DNA of 64,000 bases, from the NCBI GenBank assembly GCA_951406725.2, contig OX597833.1, positions 37,386,001 to 37,450,000 of the forward strand, in the 5' to 3' direction. The notes below the pieces were generated by a model that ran no database searches, was not told the DNA's origin, and worked only from the letters and a program-made list of their open reading frames with translations. Position numbers and translations under genes: made by a program. Shown in pieces: positions 9,908 to 47,989 of this stretch (position 1 is its first letter; each line of letters opens with the position of its first letter). This DNA is from Octopus vulgaris. Taxonomy: Eukaryota.

Positions 9908-10174
9908 AGTTCAGCAAAATTTGGATTCGGATGAATATGGTACTTAAGTTAAAGGCACCAAAATTTTGTATGGTGTTATCCATATAAGTCAGGTGGGGTG
10001 ATTGTAATCAAAATGAGCAACAAGGATATCCAAGGTAGAGTAGTACAATTGTTTCGTGCTACTTCATTTTATTAAACCCTGTAAGTATTACATCAGTTTT
10101 AAAATGTGGAGCAATCTTCAGCCACATATAGAATTTTTCAATTAAACGGACAATGCACATTCTTATACTTATTC
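9908..10174 (-). mobile_element. Short non-coding repeat carrying a hammerhead motif (candidate non-autonomous Penelope-like element/retrozyme)
   Basis: Contains the HHR at 10040-10125. Abuts a (TA)n tract and an RTE 3' UTR. Confidence 0.55.
10040..10125 (-). ncRNA. Type-I hammerhead ribozyme motif
   Basis: Minus strand reads GUGG-CUGAAGA-[uugcuccacauuuu...aaaaugaaguagcac]-GAAAC-AAUU-GUA-CUAC. Helix I is GUGG/CUAC, helix II is long, and helix III is the palindrome ACAAUUGU. Confidence 0.72.
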
Positions 10175-12885: not shown

Positions 12886-13306
12886 ATTTCTTTTATCAAG
12901 AGCAAAATGCACCCCAAATCATTGAAAAATATTAACCAGTGCAAGACTATATCCATTAACAACAGAACCAACACACACACACACACAAACAAACATCATT
13001 TTTCTTACTTTTTATTCGTGTGCAAAGGCAGAACATTTTACCTTAACAAGACTTTTGAGACTGGAAGGGAGGAAGGTATCCTTAAGTCAGATGTCTGGCC
13101 TGAATGCTTGCAACAAAGTAGATTCCATTAAAAAAATCTTGGGTGCCTTTAGTGGAGCTGCTATACAGGAATGGATTAAGTTTGCCACAGACACACATAC
13201 ACAAAACAACAAGTGTTGCAAGTAAGAGTTAGTAACAAAGAATGATCAAAAAGCATTATGTATTTTGTTACAAAAAGAAAATTCTGGTCACAATCTTCAA
13301 ACTTAC

Positions 13307-13612
13307 CTTTGACATATATATCCAGAGGTTTTGACTCATTTTTGACATCGCCTTTCCAAATGATACAAACATAAGTGCCATTATCATGACAAGCCAATGG
13401 AGAGATGTCTACTACCAATGAACCAGCATTTTCGGTATGTTTCCAGTGACTCACTGAAGGGTCCACAAATTCTTTGTTAGGATCAGTTTTAATTAATAAC
13501 TTTTGACCTTTTTTTATTATCCAGTGGTCAATAGAGGAAGATTGTGAAGAACACGTCAATTTTAAACTACCTCCTATCTTAAGATCCTGCGAGTCAAGGC
13601 GAAAATCCTGAC
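13307..13612 (-). CDS. Internal exon encoding one immunoglobulin (V/I-set-like) domain of a secreted or cell-surface IgSF protein
   Basis: 306-nt phase 1-1 exon. Acceptor atttcattttttgcag, donor AAG|gtaagt. Translation LKLTC...HW...LVVDISPLACHDNGTYVC (D-x-G-x-Y-x-C). Confidence 0.9.
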
Positions 13613-13716
13613 CTGCAAAAAATGAAATGAACATTTAGAAAAAGGAAATAAAAGAGAAACTGTTTCAACAAAAAATTACGAAATAAATATAAACTATTCA
13701 TTTCTCAGAATCTGAC

Positions 13717-14130
13717 CTCACATGTATATATTGTGTATTTAATAATTACTGCATTAAAAAGGAGGTAGTATATCAATGTATAGTAAGTACACAATATGAT
13801 AGTAAAGTTTATATCAGTGCAACGAAAAACAATATGAAACAAAGGTTTAATTATCACAGCTACACCTTTAGAAACAGAAATAGAAATTCTACAGGGTTAA
13901 GTACCTATATATGGGAATTTAAAGATAAGAAAATTAATTATAATTTACAATGGAAAATATTAATATCAGCACTTGCGTACAATAATAAAAATAAAAAAAA
14001 ATGTTTATTATGCATTAATGAAATTATTTTTTTCTAATTAGGGCTAAAATTCTGCTTATTAACAATTTTAAGGAATGTAATGCTTCCTGTCTTCATAAAA
14101 TTGGGTATACTTTCTCCAAATACAAATAGA
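13717..14130 (+). mobile_element. Penelope-like GIY-YIG endonuclease fragment (second family)
   Basis: CIKKEVVYQCIVST...KVYISATKNNMKQRFNYH...STGLSTYIWEFK...QWKIL...CLLCINE. Confidence 0.85.
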
Positions 14131-14274: not shown

Positions 14275-14820
14275 TTTTTCTCTCTCCAGTTTCATCTCAG
14301 AGTTGTGGCCATGCTGATGCACTGCCGTTTTGCTACACTGTTATTACTAAGAGCCTCATCTAGCATGTGACACTTGGTGAAGAATAGAGTTTGATATAGC
14401 TACCCTCATTTGCACCTCTTGTCATGAAGTAGGTTCATCTGGGACTCTCGACAGGAAGAGGTCCAGCTTTGATTTAAAAACCCTTACGTCTACTTTGTGC
14501 AAGTTCCTCAGACTCTTTGGGAGAATATTAAAAAGCTGTGGGCCCTTGAAACCCAGGCTGTTGCAGTAACTGGTCTTGAAGCATGATGGCGTTGCTGGGA
14601 TCTTTGGCACTATGCAGTGTTGTCCCGTTCTGGCATTGGTGTAGCTTTCAATGTCAAAATTTGGCACAATTCCCTCCACGATCTTCCAGATATATATTAC
14701 TGCATACCTCTCCCGTTTTCTTTCCAGGGAGTAGAGTCTTAGCTGTTTCAACCTTTCCTAGTGGCTGAGCTGTTGCAAAGAGATGATCTTCTTTGTGAAT
14801 CTTCTCTGGATTGCTTCAAT
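14275..14820 (-). mobile_element. CR1/L2-group LINE 3' fragment
   Basis: [12 protein letters not shown]...LRLYSLERKRERYAVIYIWKI...GPQLFNILPKSLRN...FKSKLDLFLSRVPDEP, followed by 3' UTR. Confidence 0.9.
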
Positions 14821-14859
14821 ATACATACATATATATATGTATGTATATATATATGTATG

Positions 14860-14915
<56 letters not shown>

Positions 14916-14939
14916 TACATATATATATATACATACATA

Positions 14940-14980
<41 letters not shown>

Positions 14981-15047
14981 ATACATTTATATATACATAT
15001 ACATTTATATATATATACATATACATTTATATATATATACATATACA

Positions 15048-15081
<34 letters not shown>

Positions 15082-15640
15082 CATACATATACATATATAT
15101 ATACATACATATATATATATATACATATACATATACATATATATATACATATATATATATACATACATATATATATACATATACATATATATACATACAT
15201 ATATATATATACATATATATATATATACATACATATATATATACATACATATATATATATACATATATATATATACATACATATATATATATACATACAT
15301 ATATATATATACATACATACATATATATATACATACATACATATATATATATACATACATACATATATATATATACATACATATATATATATACATACAT
15401 ATATATATATACATACATATATATATACATACATATATATATATACATATATATATACATATATATATATATACATACATATATATATATATACATACAT
15501 ACATATATATATACATACATATATATATACATATATATATACATACATATATATATATACATACATATATATATATATACATACATATATATATATACAT
15601 ACATATATATATACATACATATATATATACATACATATAC

Positions 15641-15681
<41 letters not shown>

Positions 15682-15708
15682 CATACATACATACATATAT
15701 ATACATAC

Positions 15709-15771
<63 letters not shown>

Positions 15772-15777
15772 CACATA

Positions 15778-15846
<69 letters not shown>

Positions 15847-15851
15847 ACATA

Positions 15852-15906
<55 letters not shown>

Positions 15907-15922
15907 ACATAGATATATATAC

Positions 15923-15988
<66 letters not shown>

Positions 15989-16155
15989 ACATATATATAT
16001 ACATACATACATATATATATACATACATACATATATATATACATACATATATATATATACATACATATATATATATATACATACATATATACATACATAT
16101 ATATATATACATACATACATATATACATACATATATATATATATACATACATATA

Positions 16156-16233
<78 letters not shown>

Positions 16234-16239
16234 CATATA

Positions 16240-16328
<89 letters not shown>

Positions 16329-16380
16329 ATACATACATATATATATATATACATATATATATATACATATATATGTATAC

Positions 16381-16411
<31 letters not shown>

Positions 16412-16650
16412 CATACATATATATATATACATATATATATATATACATATATATATATACATACATATATATATATACATACATATATATATATACATAC
16501 ATATATATATATACATACATATATATATATACATACATATATATATATATACATACATATATATATATACATACATATATATATATACATACATATATAT
16601 ATATATACATACATATATATATATACATACATATATATATATATACATAC

Positions 16651-16701
<51 letters not shown>

Positions 16702-16702
16702 C

Positions 16703-16735
<33 letters not shown>

Positions 16736-16763
16736 CATACATATATATATATATATACATACA

Positions 16764-16799
<36 letters not shown>

Positions 16800-16928
16800 C
16801 ATACATATATATATATATACATACATATATATATATATACATACATATATATATATATAATATACATACATATATATATATATATAAATACATATATATA
16901 TATATATACATACATATATATATATATA
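14821..16928. repeat. ~2.1-kb (TA)n/(TACA)n compound microsatellite
   Basis: Direct inspection. Confidence 0.98.
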
Positions 16929-17415
16929 CCAACTTGCATCTCCCCTTGCTAATCTGTGGAGAAACTCACTGGATGCTGGCTATATTCAAAAAAACCTTCT
17001 GTCCCAGTCTGTTGTCCCAGTTTTCAAAAAGGGAAACAAGTCCCTTGCAGAGAATTACCGTCCGATCTCACTCACCTCTCATATCATCAAGGTATTTGAG
17101 AGGGTGGTGAGATCTCGAATAACCCAATTTCTGGAAAGCAACAGACGGCTGATCTCCAACCAACATGGGTTCCGTAATGGAAGGGACTGCCTAACGCAGC
17201 TCCTGCATCACTTTGAGGACATTTTGAGAGCTTTGGGAGAGGGCTCCAACACCGATGTCATCTACCTTGATTTCAGTAAGGCCTTCGACAGGGTCGATCA
17301 CAAGATCCTATTGAAAAAACTATCCAACATTGGTGTCTCTGGAAAGTTACTGAAATGGATCAAGTGTTTCCTGACAGACAGATCTCAACATGTAGTTGAA
17401 GGGGTAAAATCAAGG
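16929..17415 (+). mobile_element. CR1-group RT N-terminal fragment
   Basis: [44 protein letters not shown] and YLDFSKAFDRVDH. Confidence 0.92.
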
Positions 17416-17523
17416 ATTAAATCCAATTTTATAGTAAAATATTATAAAATATTATTAGAGACAAAACCACTATTTTGCAAAACAAACAAGGAAAGACTTA
17501 ATCAATACATAAAATTTTAATAA

Positions 17524-22248
<4,725 letters not shown>

Positions 22249-39931: not shown

Positions 39932-41527
39932 TGTGGTGTTATGAGCCAGGCTGTGTTATAGGAAAGGATCGGAAGTGAGGGGGTAGGCAATGACCTGTTG
40001 GAAGTGGGGCCTGTGGATTCCACCGGAAGTGCCGCGGTGGACATGCGGCATCAGCGAAGCTCGTGGGGTCAGTCGACGGCGAACAGCACATCAGAGCGGA
40101 TGTGTGAGACTGTACAGCGACGGATAGGTCACGTGGATGTGGGGTGAACTTCGGAGATTGAGACAGCACGTGGATGTTGAAAGTGACCCTTTTTCTGGAC
40201 GACAGGTAAGACTTCCGTAATTCTCTCTTCGCTTCCGTCTTTTTCGTCCGTTACATCACAAGCTATTTCGGCTAAAAAAAAAATTATAGGTATGGTCCGT
40301 GTTTCGAATGAGACGGTTAGGCCATTTTGTGACGAGGGAGATGTGACCGCTTGCCTGCAAAAAATTAAGTTGGTGGCAAGACTCCAAAGTATAGATAATC
40401 TAGCGAGTTTAATACTGTTGTACCTCGATGGATCGGCGTTGGCGCTATACCTGGAAATGGAAGAGAAGGACCAGTTGAGCGTAGAAAAAATAGAAGGCTG
40501 ATGGAGGCTTTCACAGGCATATGGTTGACCGGGGAAAGCAAAGTGGATGGGCGAACAGGTCGATGTGTTTACCAACGAAATCAGGAGATTGGCTAGAGTC
40601 GTGTGATATAGAGATGGCGCATTAGAACAAACCGTAAAATTAGCCTTTGTGACAGGATTTCCTAACCACGTTTCGGTCGAGCTGCAAAAGCTGCCGAACA
40701 TTCACTCTATGGCAATGTGAAAAGGCATCATTGTACCATCAAGACCATAGCAGAGAGGGGCCACATCTCACCGGTCGAGGCCGTTTTTTTCTTTTTGGTA
40801 TAATATGCCGTCCAGGACGGGACAAGCTGAGGAGTCAGTGTCACACAGGGCAATATTCAAGTACGAGTGAAGGCATCCATGTACTGCATCGCCGCATCCC
40901 GCAGAAGAGAAAGAGCATGCCTTTGTGCAGGTCGGGAAAGAAGTCTGGGTTAAACCCCCAAATGCGCGGTGCACATCAAAGTGGGGAAAGGTGACAATAA
41001 CCTCTGTGAATTCGAGGAACAATGTATCCGTAGATGGCATGCCACGACATGTCTTGGTTGTGCGCAGGATCATCGCTGCGACGGAGGATGGGGCCAACAG
41101 TAATGGACAAGAGGACGAAGCCGGCAGGAACATGCCAGGAACTGAGGCCAGTCCTGAAGTCCCACGGCGGTCACAGAGGGAGCGGTGCCCTCCTCGCTTG
41201 TTGGCTGATTACGAGACAAGTTAAGGCGTGTGGTCGGGGTTGAGAAGAGGGCGTGGGCAGGCTGGTTGAATAATCTTCAGATGAGTGGGGGGCGTGTGTT
41301 GTTATGAGCCTGGCTGTGTTGTAGGGAAGGATCGAAAGTGAGGGAGTAGGTATGTCCTGTCGGAAGTGGGGCCTGTGGATTCCACCGGAAGTGCCGCGGT
41401 GGACATGCGGCATCAGCGAAGCACGAGGGGCCAGTCGACGGCGAACAGTACATCAGACCGGACGTGTGAGACTGTACAGCGACGGATAGAGCACGTGGAC
41501 GTGGAGTGAATCTTGGAGATCGAGACA
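39932..41527 (+). mobile_element. Internally deleted Ty3/Gypsy LTR retrotransposon
   Basis: 5' LTR 39932-40260 (TG...CA, tgtggtgtta/ttacatcaca). 3' LTR 41295-41527 is truncated and preceded by a G-rich PPT. Gag-like fragment (PFCDEGDV...LYLDGSALALY) and integrase-tail-like fragment (VWVKPP...PRRSQRERCPPRLLADY). Confidence 0.9.
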
Positions 41528-41701
41528 TTTAAGCGGCACTGTATGGAAGTAGATGGCATTTTTCTTTCTTAGAAATATAACATACGTTTCGTGGCTGGCC
41601 GCCGACAGATTTTTCTGCAAAATATGGGTAGTTTATCTTGTTCAAGCTATATTATTAGCATTATTAGCATTATTCGGCGTTTGAGAGTAAAATTATTTCC
41701 T

Positions 41702-41775
<74 letters not shown>

Positions 41776-41780
41776 ACTCT

Positions 41781-41875
<95 letters not shown>
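41702..41875. repeat. (TATC)n/(CT)n/(TA)n microsatellite
   Basis: Direct inspection. Confidence 0.97.
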
Positions 41876-41878
<3 letters not shown>

Positions 41879-42736
41879 GGTAAATCATTTTACCTTTGCC
41901 CATATAATACAGTAAGTGAATTGATTGCATCGCAATCCTTAACATTTATGTATTAACTTTGTTGGGTACTTCACTAGCAGTATATTGGATATATGTTATC
42001 CCATGGAGGGTTGCATTTACAACCCCTATCTCAATTTTTATATATATATATATATAATAAAAATAGGGTTCAGTAAAATAATTTACTTTACCACTCACCG
42101 AACTTTTTAGAAATAGCAGCCAAAAATTTTAGCTATTTCTTCTACTGTAAGAAAAATCTCCCAGACAATGCAAACTCAAAAATAACTCACACAGGTATAG
42201 AGGGAAAAATAACGAAAGAACACACCTATATAAGATTACCTGAGAACAGGCCCGTTTCTGATACGTTTTCGACTTAACAGTTGTTCCCGCAGAGTAAATT
42301 AAATAAAATTTGGGATTTTGCGGAGGGTCAAAGCTGGTAACAAAAACAAGACAGTGAAAACAGACAAGAAGGGCTGCTAAGCCTAGACGAGTTGAGTTGG
42401 TGAACGCGAAGAAACAAGCTCTGACAGGAGACAGACAAGAATGCGTCCAATCCCTGTGACTAATCAGAGAGAAAGAAGGAAATTCAAGTTAGGAGAAAAA
42501 AGATGGCCGACGGTCACGTGCGAGCTATGTATGTATGTATGTATGTATGGTCACAATGAGGATATTTAAACCTTTTATAGGTTTTATCCAAGAAACACTG
42601 GTTTAATATTGTATTATGAAGAGATATTTCTTCAATGAATATATTATATAAAATATCGTAAAATATCAAATATTATCGAGTTTGAAGCAGAAAGATCTAC
42701 TGGATACAAATTAATTTATTAATTAATTAACATATT

Positions 42737-42836
42737 CACCTACAATTGTTTCATTTCTCAACCCAAATTAAAACTACAAAACAAAAATATATAATTTTGC
42801 ATTTTAAAATACCTTGGAGGGAAAATCATCCGGGTG
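42737..42836 (-). ncRNA. Type-I hammerhead motif, outer unit, core-mutated copy
   Basis: CACC-CGGAUGA (U4>G)-long helix II-GAAAC-AAUU-GUA-GGUG. Confidence 0.55.
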
Positions 42837-42913
42837 CACAAAGGACAATATAAGGATTACATTATGATCCGTTGAGATATTCAGAATATATATAGTCCTG
42901 TTTATTATGTGCG

Positions 42914-42954
<41 letters not shown>

Positions 42955-42983
42955 CAAAAGAAAAACATGATGCAAAGGATTTA

Positions 42984-43071
42984 GCGGTACATATGTTTCT
43001 GGCTTTTATTAGACGGTTTATATCAATGCATAATTGATGTAATATGTATGTCAATAGCCTTCTTCAGCCGC
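42984..43071 (-). ncRNA. Type-I hammerhead ribozyme motif, inner unit, intact core
   Basis: GCGG-CUGAAGA-[aggcu...agcca]-GAAAC-AUAU-GUA-CCGC. Helix I is perfect and helix III is the palindrome ACAUAUGU. Confidence 0.75.
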
Positions 43072-43281
43072 GCACAATTACTGCTTCAAGGACATGTATT
43101 ACATTATAAGTTTGGGAATGGAAATCTTCGTAGTCGTCGAGTGAAAAACGGGACGGACGCTTTGTTTTTGTTTTGGTGCCTCGCTCTGTTGTACACGACT
43201 ATGAGGATTTGCATCCCCAACGTAAATCGTCTTTTTCCCAAACTTATAATGTAATACATGTCCTTGAAGTAGTAATTGTGC

Positions 43282-43369
43282 GCGGCTGAAGAAGGCTTTT
43301 GACATACATATTACATCAATTACGCATTGATATAAACCGTCTAATAAAAGCTAGAAACATATGTATCGC
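43282..43369 (+). ncRNA. Type-I hammerhead ribozyme motif, inner unit, second copy
   Basis: GCGG-CUGAAGA-[aggcuuuu...aaaagcua]-GAAAC-AUAU-GUA-UCGC, with a G-U wobble in helix I. Confidence 0.72.
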
Positions 43370-43471
43370 TAAATCCTTTGCATCATGTTTTTCTTTTGAT
43401 AAATATACTCTATCACCTACACCACTAACTGGCATATACAGGTGCTTACAATTATCAAGTATTCACCGTGA

Positions 43472-43514
<43 letters not shown>

Positions 43515-43622
43515 TGTGTGTGCGTGTGTGCGCGTGTGTGTATACGCTTACATATACATACACACATATATATTCTGAATATCTCAACGGATCATAATGT
43601 AATCCTTATATTCTCCCTTGTG

Positions 43623-43726
43623 TACACTGATGATTTTCCATCCAAGGTATCTTAAAATACAAAATTATATATTTATATATGTTTTGTAGTTTTAATTTTA
43701 GTTGAGAAATGAAACAATTGTTGGTG
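43623..43726 (+). ncRNA. Type-I hammerhead motif, outer unit, helix-I-damaged copy
   Basis: CUGAUGA-long helix II (uaaaauacaaaa/uuuuguaguuuua)-GAAAC-AAUU-GUU-GGUG. The 5' strand of helix I carries a small deletion. Confidence 0.55.
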
Positions 43727-43785
43727 AATATGTTAATTAATTAATAAAATTAATCTGTATCCATTAGATCTCTCTGTTTTCAAAC

Positions 43786-43837
<52 letters not shown>

Positions 43838-43871
43838 GAGAGGGGAGAGACAGACAGACAAACAAACAAGC

Positions 43872-43955
<84 letters not shown>

Positions 43956-44289
43956 CATAAGTGTTTTGTAAACTTTCGAGACAAGCTGAAACAAATTTTT
44001 TAATATCTCGAAGCACACACATAAAGCTATAAATATTAACATATGACTATTGGGTTCAAGAACCCTTTGGATGGAAAAAGTTGGTCTTTAGTATTAGGTA
44101 CATATTTGAAGAACTTCATTTTCTGAAGTTATTATGATCACATCTTAAAAAAAAAAAAGAAAGACAAAAAAAACAAACAATTCTAACGCAAGTGAATATA
44201 TTTTAAAGAAAAACTCATTTCGAAAACTTAACAGTGAAAACGAGTATGTCAATGCTTAAAAGTCACTTATTTAAGGGTCATTTTTACAA

Positions 44290-45740
44290 CTTCGAATTCC
44301 GCCGAAGTCGACTTTGCTTTTTATCATTTTGAGGTCTATAAAATAAGTACCAGTATAGCACTCACTGTGGAGGCGCAATGGTCCAGTGGTTAGGGCAGCG
44401 GACTCGTATTCGGAGGATCGCGGTTTCGATTCCCAGACCGGGCGTTGTGTGTGTTTATTGAGCGAAAACACTTAAAAGTTCCGCGAGGCTCCGGCAGGGA
44501 GTGATGGCGACCCCTGTTGTACTCTTTCGCTACAACTTTCTCTCACTCTCTCTTCCTGTTTCTTGAGTAACGCTGCGATAGATTGGCGTCACGTCCAGCT
44601 GGGGGGGACAAATATGCCACAGAAACCGGGAAACCGGGCCCATGAGACTGGCTAGGCTTGAAAAGGGGCGAGTTTTTTTTTTTATAGCACTCACTGGGGT
44701 CAATGTAATCAACTTACCCCCTACTCCGAAACTGCTGGCCTTCTGCAAAAATTTGAAACCATTATTACAACTTTAACTTTCATGCCTCTGGGATCGATAA
44801 AATAAAGTACCAGTCAAGTACTGAATCAATATAATGGACTTAGCGCTCTCTCTCTCTAAATTTGCTGGCTTTGGGCCAAAATTTGAAACAGTTGTAACGG
44901 ATTTCACTTTCTTTCTTTTTCTTCTTTTTTTTTTTACTAACTAACCTAATTTTCTGAAGTTTATGATACGATCGTAGAAAACATTTGTTATAAGACAAAA
45001 TTTTGAAAGTAATTTGTATATTTTTAATGTTTTCTTTCTTCCGATGCTAGCGTAATATAATTTCAAGAATTTGGCTGTTCAACAACATAAAGATAATTCA
45101 GCAATAATTCTTTCAGATTTTGGCAGAACGCCAGAAATATTATGCGTAAGGTATTTATCTTTTACATCGACCCCAGTGCTCGACTAAAATTCATTTTATC
45201 GACTGAAAATATAAAAGGTAAACTCTATTTTGGCGACATTCGAACTCAGAACGTAAAACCGGAAGAAATACCGCCAAATATTTTGTTTGGTGTGCAAACA
45301 ATTCCGCCATATCACCGCTTTGGAGAAAGGTTAAATCATCCCTTCTACTAGAGGTATAAATCCTGAAATTTTGTTAGGGAAGGGGATTAGTTGGTTACTG
45401 GTACTTCTTTTATCGACTCCGAAAGGATGAAAGACAAAATCGATCTCTGTGGAATTTGAACTCAGAACGTAAAACCGAAGCATTTTATTCGGCGTGCTAA
45501 CGGTTCTGCCAACACGGCACCTTAGAGAAAGCAGTAATATTAGTTTTAAATGTTGGTACTAGGCCAGCAGTTTCGGAGAAGGGAATAAGTCGATTATATC
45601 GACTCCAGTGTTCAACTGGTACGCAATTTACCGACTCTGAAAGGATGACAGTCAAGTTCTGCGGAATTTGAATTTGGAACGGAAAGGCGGACGAAATATC
45701 GCTAGGCTTTTTGCTCACCGTGCTAACGATTCTGCCAACT
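44290..45740. mobile_element. Cluster of SINE fragments on both strands
   Basis: Same core as 34960-36235; plus strand to ~44890, minus strand ~45160-45740. Confidence 0.75.
44368..44682 (+). mobile_element. Full-length tRNA-derived SINE with V-domain-like segment and T-rich tail, nested in another SINE
   Basis: A box tggtccagtgg, B box ggtttcgattccc, and gctgcgatagattggcgtcacgtccag resembling the V-SINE core. 14-bp TSD tatagcactcactg (44354-44367, 44683-44696). Confidence 0.88.
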
Positions 45741-45845
45741 TATTAGAGAAAATGATAATAAAATTTGGTAAGTAAATTTTAAGCATCTACACTTACACGA
45801 GCACCGAAGATCATTTTTGGGTGTTATTTGATTCTTTCACCCGTA

Positions 45846-46257
45846 CGATTTTCACTAAGAAAAAAATAAAGAACCCGGATTTTTTAGTGTGGAATCAGGT
45901 ACTCTGACTTCCTAATATGCTGCAAACTCCTTATTTTTGTTCGGAGAAAAAGAGGTGCCCCCTCCCCCACACACCGGAATCATTGGAAATGTTTTTGTCG
46001 TGAATGAATTCCGGTGACTTCCTAATATACTACAAATCCCTCTTTTGAGGTTCCAGAAAACGGGGTGGGGTGGGGTGAGGTGGAAGCCTCGGAAATTTCA
46101 CCTCCATCGATCTTTTCACTAAGAAAAAAAAAGAAACTTGGAATTTTTGCATGGAATCAAGTACCCTGACCTAATATGCAGCAAACCCCTTATTTTTGCT
46201 CGGAAAAAAGGTGGAGTGGGAAAACCAGACCCCACCCCATATCCCAGAATCATTGCC
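45846..46257. repeat. Degenerate tandem repeat (~260-bp period, ~130-bp sub-period)
   Basis: ttttcactaagaaaaaa...tggaatcargtacyctgac...cctaatatgc.gcaaac occurs twice; tgacttcctaatat recurs in between. Confidence 0.7.
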
Positions 46258-46510
46258 AGTGCCGACGGCACGTAAAAAGAACCATTCGAGCGTGATCGGT
46301 GCTAGTGCCATCTGACTGAACCCTGTGCCAGTCACACTTGAAAAGCACTCACTACACTCTCGGAGTGGTTGGCATTAGGAAGGGCATCCAGCTATAGAAA
46401 CCTTACCAGAACAGACTGCATTCTCATTGCAGCCTCCTGGCTTGCCAGTCCTCAGTCAAACCGTCCAACCCATGCCAGCTTGGAACGCAGACGTTAAACG
46501 ATGATGATAA
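46255..46510 (+). mobile_element. Solo RTE 3' UTR
   Basis: ggagtggttggcattaggaagggcatccagct...gacgttaaacgatgatgat. Confidence 0.85.
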
Positions 46511-47079
46511 TGTATAATGATATATATAATTATGATAGATTGTTACCCATTCAATGTTTAGGCAAACTTCATCACCTACTCACAATCTTTCTCTTACTCG
46601 CTCGTTCTCTCTCACTCATTCCCCCCCCCCCCAAAATGAAACACATTTCGGCGCCAAAAATTGTAAAGGAAAAAAATCTATATTCGGGATTATTATATAT
46701 ATTATATCCAGTGATTTTAAAAGGTATGAAAAAGATATTGTTGTTTTAATATACTTTTACTTGTTTCATACACATACACAAACTAACGAGTTTTTATTTT
46801 TAGAATAATTATTTATCATTCGTTATCTCTCCACTGACTTCGGTACCACTAACTTCTATAACCTCTGCATTTTCACTTATTCATTTCAAACTTCTTTGAA
46901 TTTTCAATTTAATGTAATCCACACTCTCTCGAAAACGTATTTCTGCAAAATGCTATCTAAAATTATGGGTAAAGAAAGAAATGGCAAAAAAATATTTGAA
47001 AATGGGGGTGGGGGTGAAATTGCTGAGGGTTCGACCGTTAGTGAGGTCCTGTACCCATATATGCATGTATATATATATA

Positions 47080-47634: not shown

Positions 47635-47989
47635 TATATCATGAAGTATGTTTGCCACCTAAATGTGGATGACTCATATGGGACGATATAGTCCCAAGAA
47701 GACATCTCCTCCAGTTGGCTAATGACACACTGTCTGTGCTCGATCAGTATTTGCGAAAGGGAAATCATTGTTCCCATCTCTAGCCTTACGTGATACACAC
47801 GGACCCGGGTTTCTGAATAGTAACCCGTCATCAGCGTGTGACAATCACCAGCTAGGGATTGATTCTTTATTATGATCACGTGAATCGAACATAGAAGGGA
47901 CAGCACAGGGTGTTTCAAAGCATAAAAATTGTGAGTTCGTTTGCAATAAGCGAATGATGTATTTACAATGAATGTATTTACAATTTTAA

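Follow-up and report, generated by a model that had tools for sequence, protein, structure and literature searches.

Four hammerhead motifs in an Octopus vulgaris palindrome: probable nesting of head-to-head copies from two Hydra-type Penelope-like element families

Minimal type-I hammerhead ribozymes (HHRs) have been described in Penelope-like elements (PLEs), where the catalytic core is combined with a short helix I, a palindromic helix III suited to dimers and a highly conserved G10.1-C11.1 pair, and where hammerhead pairs on opposite strands have been reported 100-700 bp apart (Cervera and de la Pena 2014, PMC4209133). Among PLEs, the Hydra clade was defined by motifs that include DKT, with an octopus member listed (Craig et al. 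2021, PMC8557442). Elements of this clade, such as Hydra-1_Obim of Octopus bimaculoides and Penelope-13_HM, encode a reverse transcriptase (RT) with a GIY-YIG endonuclease at the C-terminus, a CxCx5C linker and CxxC/CxH motifs, target (TA)n, carry a 3' hammerhead and are generally shorter than 3 kb (PMC8557442). The supplementary HHR table of that source gives a loop 2 of 3-10 nt in 21 Hydra-clade rows, with U.U at the base of helix II among 13 of the 21, and it also lists a Selaginella PLE with a 35-nt loop, so that long loops are not unprecedented. A U.U at the position of the G10.1-C11.1 pair is also seen in an axolotl HHR (PMC7229834). An inverted, 5'-truncated copy together with a tail is a published PLE structure (PMC8557442; PMC3846280), and in Penelope-13_HM such a copy is accompanied by two opposite-strand HHRs (PMC8557442).

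Two further systems are relevant for comparison. Non-LTR retrozymes, which have PLE ancestry, are low-GC sequences of a few hundred nt with a type-I HHR, organised as a fixed non-coding unit in head-to-tail tandems (PMC7229834; bioRxiv 10.64898/2026.07.22.740005). PAc, a Poseidon-clade element of Anolis, inserts into AT-rich targets, has two fixed 3' ends that define a tail, and carries an HHR that overlaps the start of the ORF; the anole PLE protein cleaves both DNA strands, begins reverse transcription from the two tail-defining sites in the RNA, and helps the hammerhead (Frangieh et al. 2024, PMC11167929).

The locus analysed here lies in a 64,000-nt stretch of the O. vulgaris genome (assembly GCA_951406725.2, contig OX597833.1, positions 37,386,001 to 37,450,000), referred to as the window, in which all positions without a locus name are given. 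Hammerhead positions are numbered according to the customary convention. This numbering is consistent with PMC4209133.

An earlier note on this DNA had described four CUGANGA...GAAAC-palindrome-GUH motifs of PLE-type minimal type I in two nested inverted pairs, all reading outward from the centre, and these motifs were indeed present, starting at 42832 (-), 43067 (-), 43286 (+) and 43627 (+) (Table 1). Its remark that such hammerheads occur in PLEs, copies of which are often inverted, agrees with both the motifs and the published PLE structure. The inner arms (42946-43118 and 43235-43407) are identical at 168 of 173 positions, and the outer arms (42674-42893 and 43566-43791) at 205 of 220 aligned positions, with 6 gap columns. 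The inner helix I sequences (GCGG/CCGC and GCGG/UCGC) and both inner cut positions were as claimed, and three of the four motifs possess an intact core. The inner motif on the (+) strand exhibits three private changes (43298, 43352 and 43366), with pairing kept or gained. Regarding the outer lesions, the U4>G change of the left motif was confirmed, with the family letter at this position being seen in contigs of other runs, whereas the right helix I was found to be altered by two substitutions (CACC>TACA in an ungapped alignment) rather than by a deletion. The extent of 42674..43791 likewise stood for the arms, but not for the left outer unit, the family-conserved tail of which reaches 42550. 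No central spacer was found: the sequence in question belongs to the element designated here as A, the direct copy of which begins at 43137, right next to the inverted copy, which extends leftward from this position to 42946 and lacks a short internal stretch. Two more repeat fragments (42061-42260 and 42276-42455), with relatives in several of the fetched loci, are located immediately to the left of the palindrome.

Table 1. Parts of the palindrome in left-to-right order (positions within the window; assignments to elements are putative)
Feature	Position	Strand	Remarks
Main copy of family B: the older Hydra-type PLE's 3' end (pLTR), including tail 42550-42673	42550..42893	-	Ends at (TATG)n/(TA)n tract
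Outer hammerhead of family B with CACC/GGUG as helix I and ACAAUUGU as palindrome; cut predicted at 42741/42740	42737..42836	-	U4>G core lesion at 42831
Part of the upstream microsatellite-rich 3'UTR of family B itself, ending in the (TA)n that took the A insertion	42894..42945	-	Like upstream sequence of other B copies
Family A inverted copy, 5'-truncated, without tail	42946..43137	-	Arm alignment
Inner hammerhead, family A, core intact, predicted cut 42988/42987	42984..43071	-	Hammerhead fold is the one of lowest free energy
Family A direct copy, 5'-truncated 3'UTR/pLTR of the younger Hydra-type PLE	43137..43407	+	Comparison with other A loci
Inner hammerhead, family A, core intact, with a 61-nt extended domain II and ACAUAUGU as palindrome, predicted to be cut after 43365	43282..43369	+	Sequence, folding
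Tail of family A, with which the 5'UTR of the next unit begins, then (TA)n	43408..43477	+	Runs on into 5'UTR in L084 and L251
(TA)n and remainder of the family B microsatellite tract, split by the A insertion	43478..43565	-	Assigned by likeness to tracts found upstream in other B copies
Family B inverted copy, without tail, ends at (TA)n	43566..43791	+	Arm alignment
Outer hammerhead, family B; core intact, helix I broken beside the core (A.G), GUU triplet, 77-nt domain II	43623..43726	+	Sequence, copy alignment

The two units were shown to be separate multicopy PLE families, and their description as one composite element is wrong. A first look at the genome yielded at least 1,486 candidates for A and at least 735 for B, of which 40 were scored for each family. 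No B copy was found at 29 other A loci or at 30 loci sampled by the A 3' end (these sets overlap in part), and no A copy at 28 other B loci or at 29 other B-tail loci; in a relaxed motif scan of 180 fetched loci, the four-motif nest was observed at the window site only. Family identity amounts to 92-97% for A and 81-93% for B, and both families end at (TA)n. When A copies were sampled by their 3' ends, their 5' truncations formed a continuum from 32 to 1,523 nt upstream of the cut. An apparently fixed 5' end of A near 43137 was a query selection effect, which vanished with this sampling.

These observations bear on the composite non-autonomous PLE/retrozyme proposed in the earlier note, which would move as one A+B unit and set free a ~350-nt RNA reaching from the inner ribozyme to the outer one. 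The outward orientation of all four motifs and the intact cores of both (+) strand motifs are in its favour, but the lack of a second A+B locus in the samples described above argues against it, as does the asymmetry of the pairs, which bear their tails on opposite sides (A right, B left) and are associated with different microsatellite pieces. Furthermore, the helix-III duplex of an A/B heterodimer, which contains two central mismatches, has a computed energy of just -1.2 kcal/mol (A/A, -7.0; B/B, -6.4), and the right outer helix I is broken. Type-I HHR, low GC content, a size of a few hundred nt and PLE ancestry are shared with retrozymes; however, the window copies are arranged head-to-head instead of in head-to-tail tandem, and the variable 5' extents of A and its continuity with an ORF (see below) differ from a fixed-length, ORF-independent unit. 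A composite element is thus highly improbable.

Head-to-head pairs are a recurrent feature of both families. For A, such pairs were identified in 10 of 26 insertions (14 of 30 loci), a count from which three of 17 'inverted' calls (L228, L233 and L235), representing (TA)n-only matches, were excluded; of 28 B loci, 13 had an inverted B copy no more than 1.5 kb away. The 3' ends of A fall into two equally frequent classes (15 of 30 each), located ~40 nt and ~112 nt or more past the cut, reminiscent of the two fixed 3' ends of PAc, which likewise has AT-rich targets and belongs to a different clade. In all ten A pairs, the tail is present on exactly one arm, and both pairs in the window obey this one-tail rule. 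The recurrence of this pair structure throughout the genome also makes it extremely unlikely that the palindrome is an assembly fold-back artefact. Palindromes amid microsatellites are error-prone, and none of the contigs from independent runs spans the whole stretch, but these contigs show 0 differences at 42556-42646 and 43577-43681, and the arms differ from each other (5 of 173 and 15 of 220 positions, plus gaps) and are asymmetric in a family-typical manner.

The arms of the A pair are 97% identical, as compared with 93% for the B pair, and this lower divergence of the A arms, and of the A family as a whole, indicates that A arrived later. In addition, B carries microsatellite sequence including (TA)n within its own 3'UTR, and the A pair sits within that tract. 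As target-site duplications are unreadable in (TA)n, nesting and divergence are the grounds for this insertion order. The palindrome is consequently best explained as head-to-head pairs of two separate Hydra-type PLE families, with the younger A pair likely having retrotransposed into the (TA)n inside the older B pair (estimated probability of roughly 0.9).

The route to such pairs is inferred by analogy, from a two-primer model borrowed from the Poseidon-clade element. The endonuclease would cut both strands of a (TA)n tract, following which the RT would prime once per strand, from two fixed RNA start sites that lie ~40 and ~112 nt beyond the ribozyme cut. Head-to-head joining of the resulting truncated cDNAs would then complete the pair. 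Since the 3'UTR of B contains (TA)n, a later A event would land there, thereby doubling the palindrome. Fold-back self-priming (PMC3846280) is a possible alternative to double priming.

The parent elements of both families were sought by extending copies beyond the palindrome unit. Locus L061, 97% identical to the window A copy, continues through a 2.45 kb UTR into an endonuclease (EN) domain, and L084 contains, in order, an inverted copy, a 5' pLTR, an ORF, a 2.3-kb UTR and an A copy (83%). The same order of ORF, UTR and A was observed in L085-L087 (72-78%), and the pLTRs of L084 form a partial tandem, as in PLEs in general. The A tail runs into the 5'UTR and ATG in L084, the ATG being located ~175 nt past the cut, unlike in PAc, where the HHR overlaps the ORF start; L251 (94-99% to the window A) similarly runs through the tail into the same 5'UTR as that seen in L084. 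The A parent ORF, broken but colinear in L084-L087, comprises an RT and, at the C-terminus, a GIY-YIG domain, and its translations include ADKTG, RRIRW, YRDDA, CxCx5C, YIG, CxxC and CxH, with the linker and EN cysteines reading CNCISASEC, CQLC and CIH and with CCHH absent as judged by eye. L084:4301-4972 (-) and L085:3719-5095 hold an asparagine-rich insert between the RT thumb and the endonuclease, which recalls the N-rich inserts of rotifer Penelope ORFs (PMC3846280).

For family B, walking upstream (L144 and L220) led to a second, decayed RT plus GIY-YIG ORF, with SDKTG and CHLC in L144 and CDCRIKEKC in L215. Among ten fetched loci with this second EN, B was located downstream on the same strand in five, inverted upstream in one and absent in four; when six loci were chosen by EN score alone, B was downstream in three. 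The distance between B and EN ranges from 0.5 to 5.7 kb, in old copies, and in none of L144-L150 was a same-strand B seen downstream of an ORF where a 3' end would plausibly lie. L144:1238-7175 (G000:C6:30563000-30572900) is a B element whose ORF and upstream UTR run in the opposite orientation to its 3' end, resembling a twin-priming inversion, and L145 and L149 have a similar look.

It is conceivable, but quite improbable, that B is now a non-autonomous, solo-pLTR-like family mobilised in trans, with a merely historical ORF link; the nesting described above would be unchanged. In favour of this, short copies predominate among the B copies sampled, none of the 30 copies selected by their tail extends beyond it, and the B-parent ORFs are heavily decayed. 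However, the 5' ends of B vary widely when copies are sampled by tail, and longer copies extend into the shared UTR and EN.

Based on these motifs, and not on a tree, the parents of A and B are both assigned to the Hydra clade, the link of B to its parent ORF being weaker than that of A. The domain order, DKT, CxCx5C, CxxC/CxH, (TA)n targets and 3' hammerhead are shared with Hydra-1_Obim and Penelope-13_HM, and the inverted, truncated copy with opposite-strand HHRs of the latter resembles the window pairs. A Neptune label, considered for these elements, was dropped, as their motifs match the Hydra definition (PMC8557442). Differences from described members of the clade include the length of L084 (~5.6 kb, with a 3'UTR of 2.3 kb or more, versus generally <3 kb), the HHR sequences, as compared by eye with those of Hydra-1_oBim, and the N-terminal RWK motif, which in the A parent reads RRIRWAA, with RW kept and K replaced; an RWK counterpart was not located in the decayed B parent. 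All ORFs found in the A and B parents are broken. Homologs of the RT derive from cephalopods and corals, with Argonauta and Octopus providing the closest named protein relatives, and carry PF26215. Matches in the ESM Atlas score 0.96, including one cluster with 17% RVT_1 members, and a homolog search with a longer protein returned two unnamed matches. Direct Pfam scans of the ORF pieces returned no RT or GIY-YIG family, and a PDB sequence search returned nothing meaningful. A decayed Hydra-type GIY-YIG fragment, 39% identical to the A parent, was also detected at 13732-14126 (+) of the window, just upstream of a satellite at 14.8-22.2 kb.

To place the hammerhead motifs in a genomic context, exact matches to the pattern CTGANGA-N(52-80)-GAAACAWWTGTA were counted in the 2.8-Gb assembly, with the reversed pattern and a pattern with two core letters swapped as controls. 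The long-spacing core was found 5,956 times, compared with 22 and 44 times for the respective controls, and a short-spacing version (10-40 nt) gave 2,344 further matches versus 12 for its control. The core motif is thus present far above chance genome-wide. Taken in genome order, the first 30 matches of the long type represent ten families, the arms of which are unrelated in sequence. Covariation was assessed using one representative per family (n=10) and 5,000 partner swaps, helices I and II being absent from the search pattern. Helix I exhibited 36 of 40 Watson-Crick pairs (partner-swapped mean 14.3, maximum 27) and helix II 30 of 40 (mean 9.4, maximum 22), supporting both helices across the ten families.

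All 13 core nucleotides are intact in 28 of 32 A copies, which were picked for likeness to the window, and in 18 of 32 B copies. The right outer motif has GUU as its triplet, as against GUA in 29 of the 32 other B copies. At the base of helix II, all 32 A copies have A.A and B has U.U (30 of 32 copies with U on one side, 32 of 32 on the other), rather than the G10.1-C11.1 pair of type-I hammerheads, and the B arrangement is the one known from Hydra-clade and axolotl HHRs. Core, short helix I and palindromic helix III otherwise resemble those of minimal type-I PLE hammerheads; domain II, at 61 nt in A and 77 nt in B, is much longer than in these and than the loop 2 of the Hydra-clade HHRs cited above. 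An Rfam scan of positions 40000-47000 returned no hammerhead family even at E<=10, the matches consisting of microsatellite-driven miRNA hits. Whole-motif folds were no stabler than those of shuffled sequences (z=0.69, 0.65, -1.16 and 0.16), and domain II alone gave z values of -0.01 to -3.5, being below -1.3 in 11 of 15 sequences, which supports an extended (bulged) helix in most families, though not in all.

Other hammerheads were noted during this analysis. The window contains an intact long-domain-II hammerhead of a third family (10040-10127 (-); helix I GUGG/CUAC), followed by a short tail and (TA)n, as well as a compact type-I hammerhead (47797-47840 (-)) with a short loop II, a CCGG palindrome and a 6-bp helix I, situated ~500 nt beyond a LINE-like ORF fragment (49263-48373 (-)). 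Elsewhere, L056:1760-2930 (G000:C2:43804038-43807254) consists of at least three ~533-nt units in head-to-tail tandem, each with a near-identical type-I hammerhead (GUC triplet), which, unlike the palindrome, looks like a true non-LTR retrozyme array.

With regard to the RNA level, the claim that read-through would generate long dsRNA holds in silico: in the predicted fold of a transcript covering 42546-43800, the far arm pairs with 86 of the 88 nucleotides of the inner hammerhead and with 92 of the 104 of the outer one. Given this hairpin and the weak A/B duplex, together with the damaged outer motif, a long hairpin is expected and the ~350-nt inner-to-outer product is unlikely. In the parent elements, which the window hammerheads likely served, the ribozymes would trim a tandem precursor RNA as homodimers or with the help of the element protein. 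In the dead, promoter-less remnant they are likely inert, and any read-through RNA would hide them within its long hairpin. Family copies are covered by contigs of two runs presumed to be RNA, which show neither ends nor strand.

The window as a whole is rich in repeats, among them LINE fragments, microsatellites and a 7.4-kb satellite, and also contains one probable Ig-domain exon. The satellite (14819-22246) is of (TA/CA)n type with extreme GC skew and is interrupted by a LINE RT fragment (16888-17517), and the open frame at 13179-13634 (-) encodes an immunoglobulin (V-set/ig) domain and is probably a host exon; the palindrome may be situated within one of the upstream introns of the gene concerned.

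A and B are new families of a known clade, and nothing about them is unusual apart from the great length of the predicted ribozymes' second arm. A literature search, with subscription papers and Repbase/Dfam outside its reach, found no description of long-domain-II cephalopod hammerheads, and the two families may already be catalogued in those resources. We tentatively put forward a joint reading, which we consider possible rather than probable, whereby cephalopod Hydra-type PLEs would carry undescribed, protein-switched long-arm hammerheads, and the one-tail rule would record double priming. According to this proposal, the ~6,000 exact copies, in at least ten families, would have kept a bulged-helix domain II of 52-80 nt despite unrelated sequence, the long arm might be a docking site for the element's protein or a substitute for the loop I-loop II contact, and descriptors built on short loops would miss such ribozymes.

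In itself, the locus is a commonplace case of layered repeats, with one (TA)n-targeting retroelement lodged in another. The at least 5,956 long- and 2,344 short-domain-II exact cores, with many families and rich covariation, are of genome-wide relevance and, if the tentative reading is true, the origin of PLE inverted repeats would be testable from one genome alone. Many of these hammerheads represent built-in hairpins, which, if transcribed, could feed dsRNA pathways.
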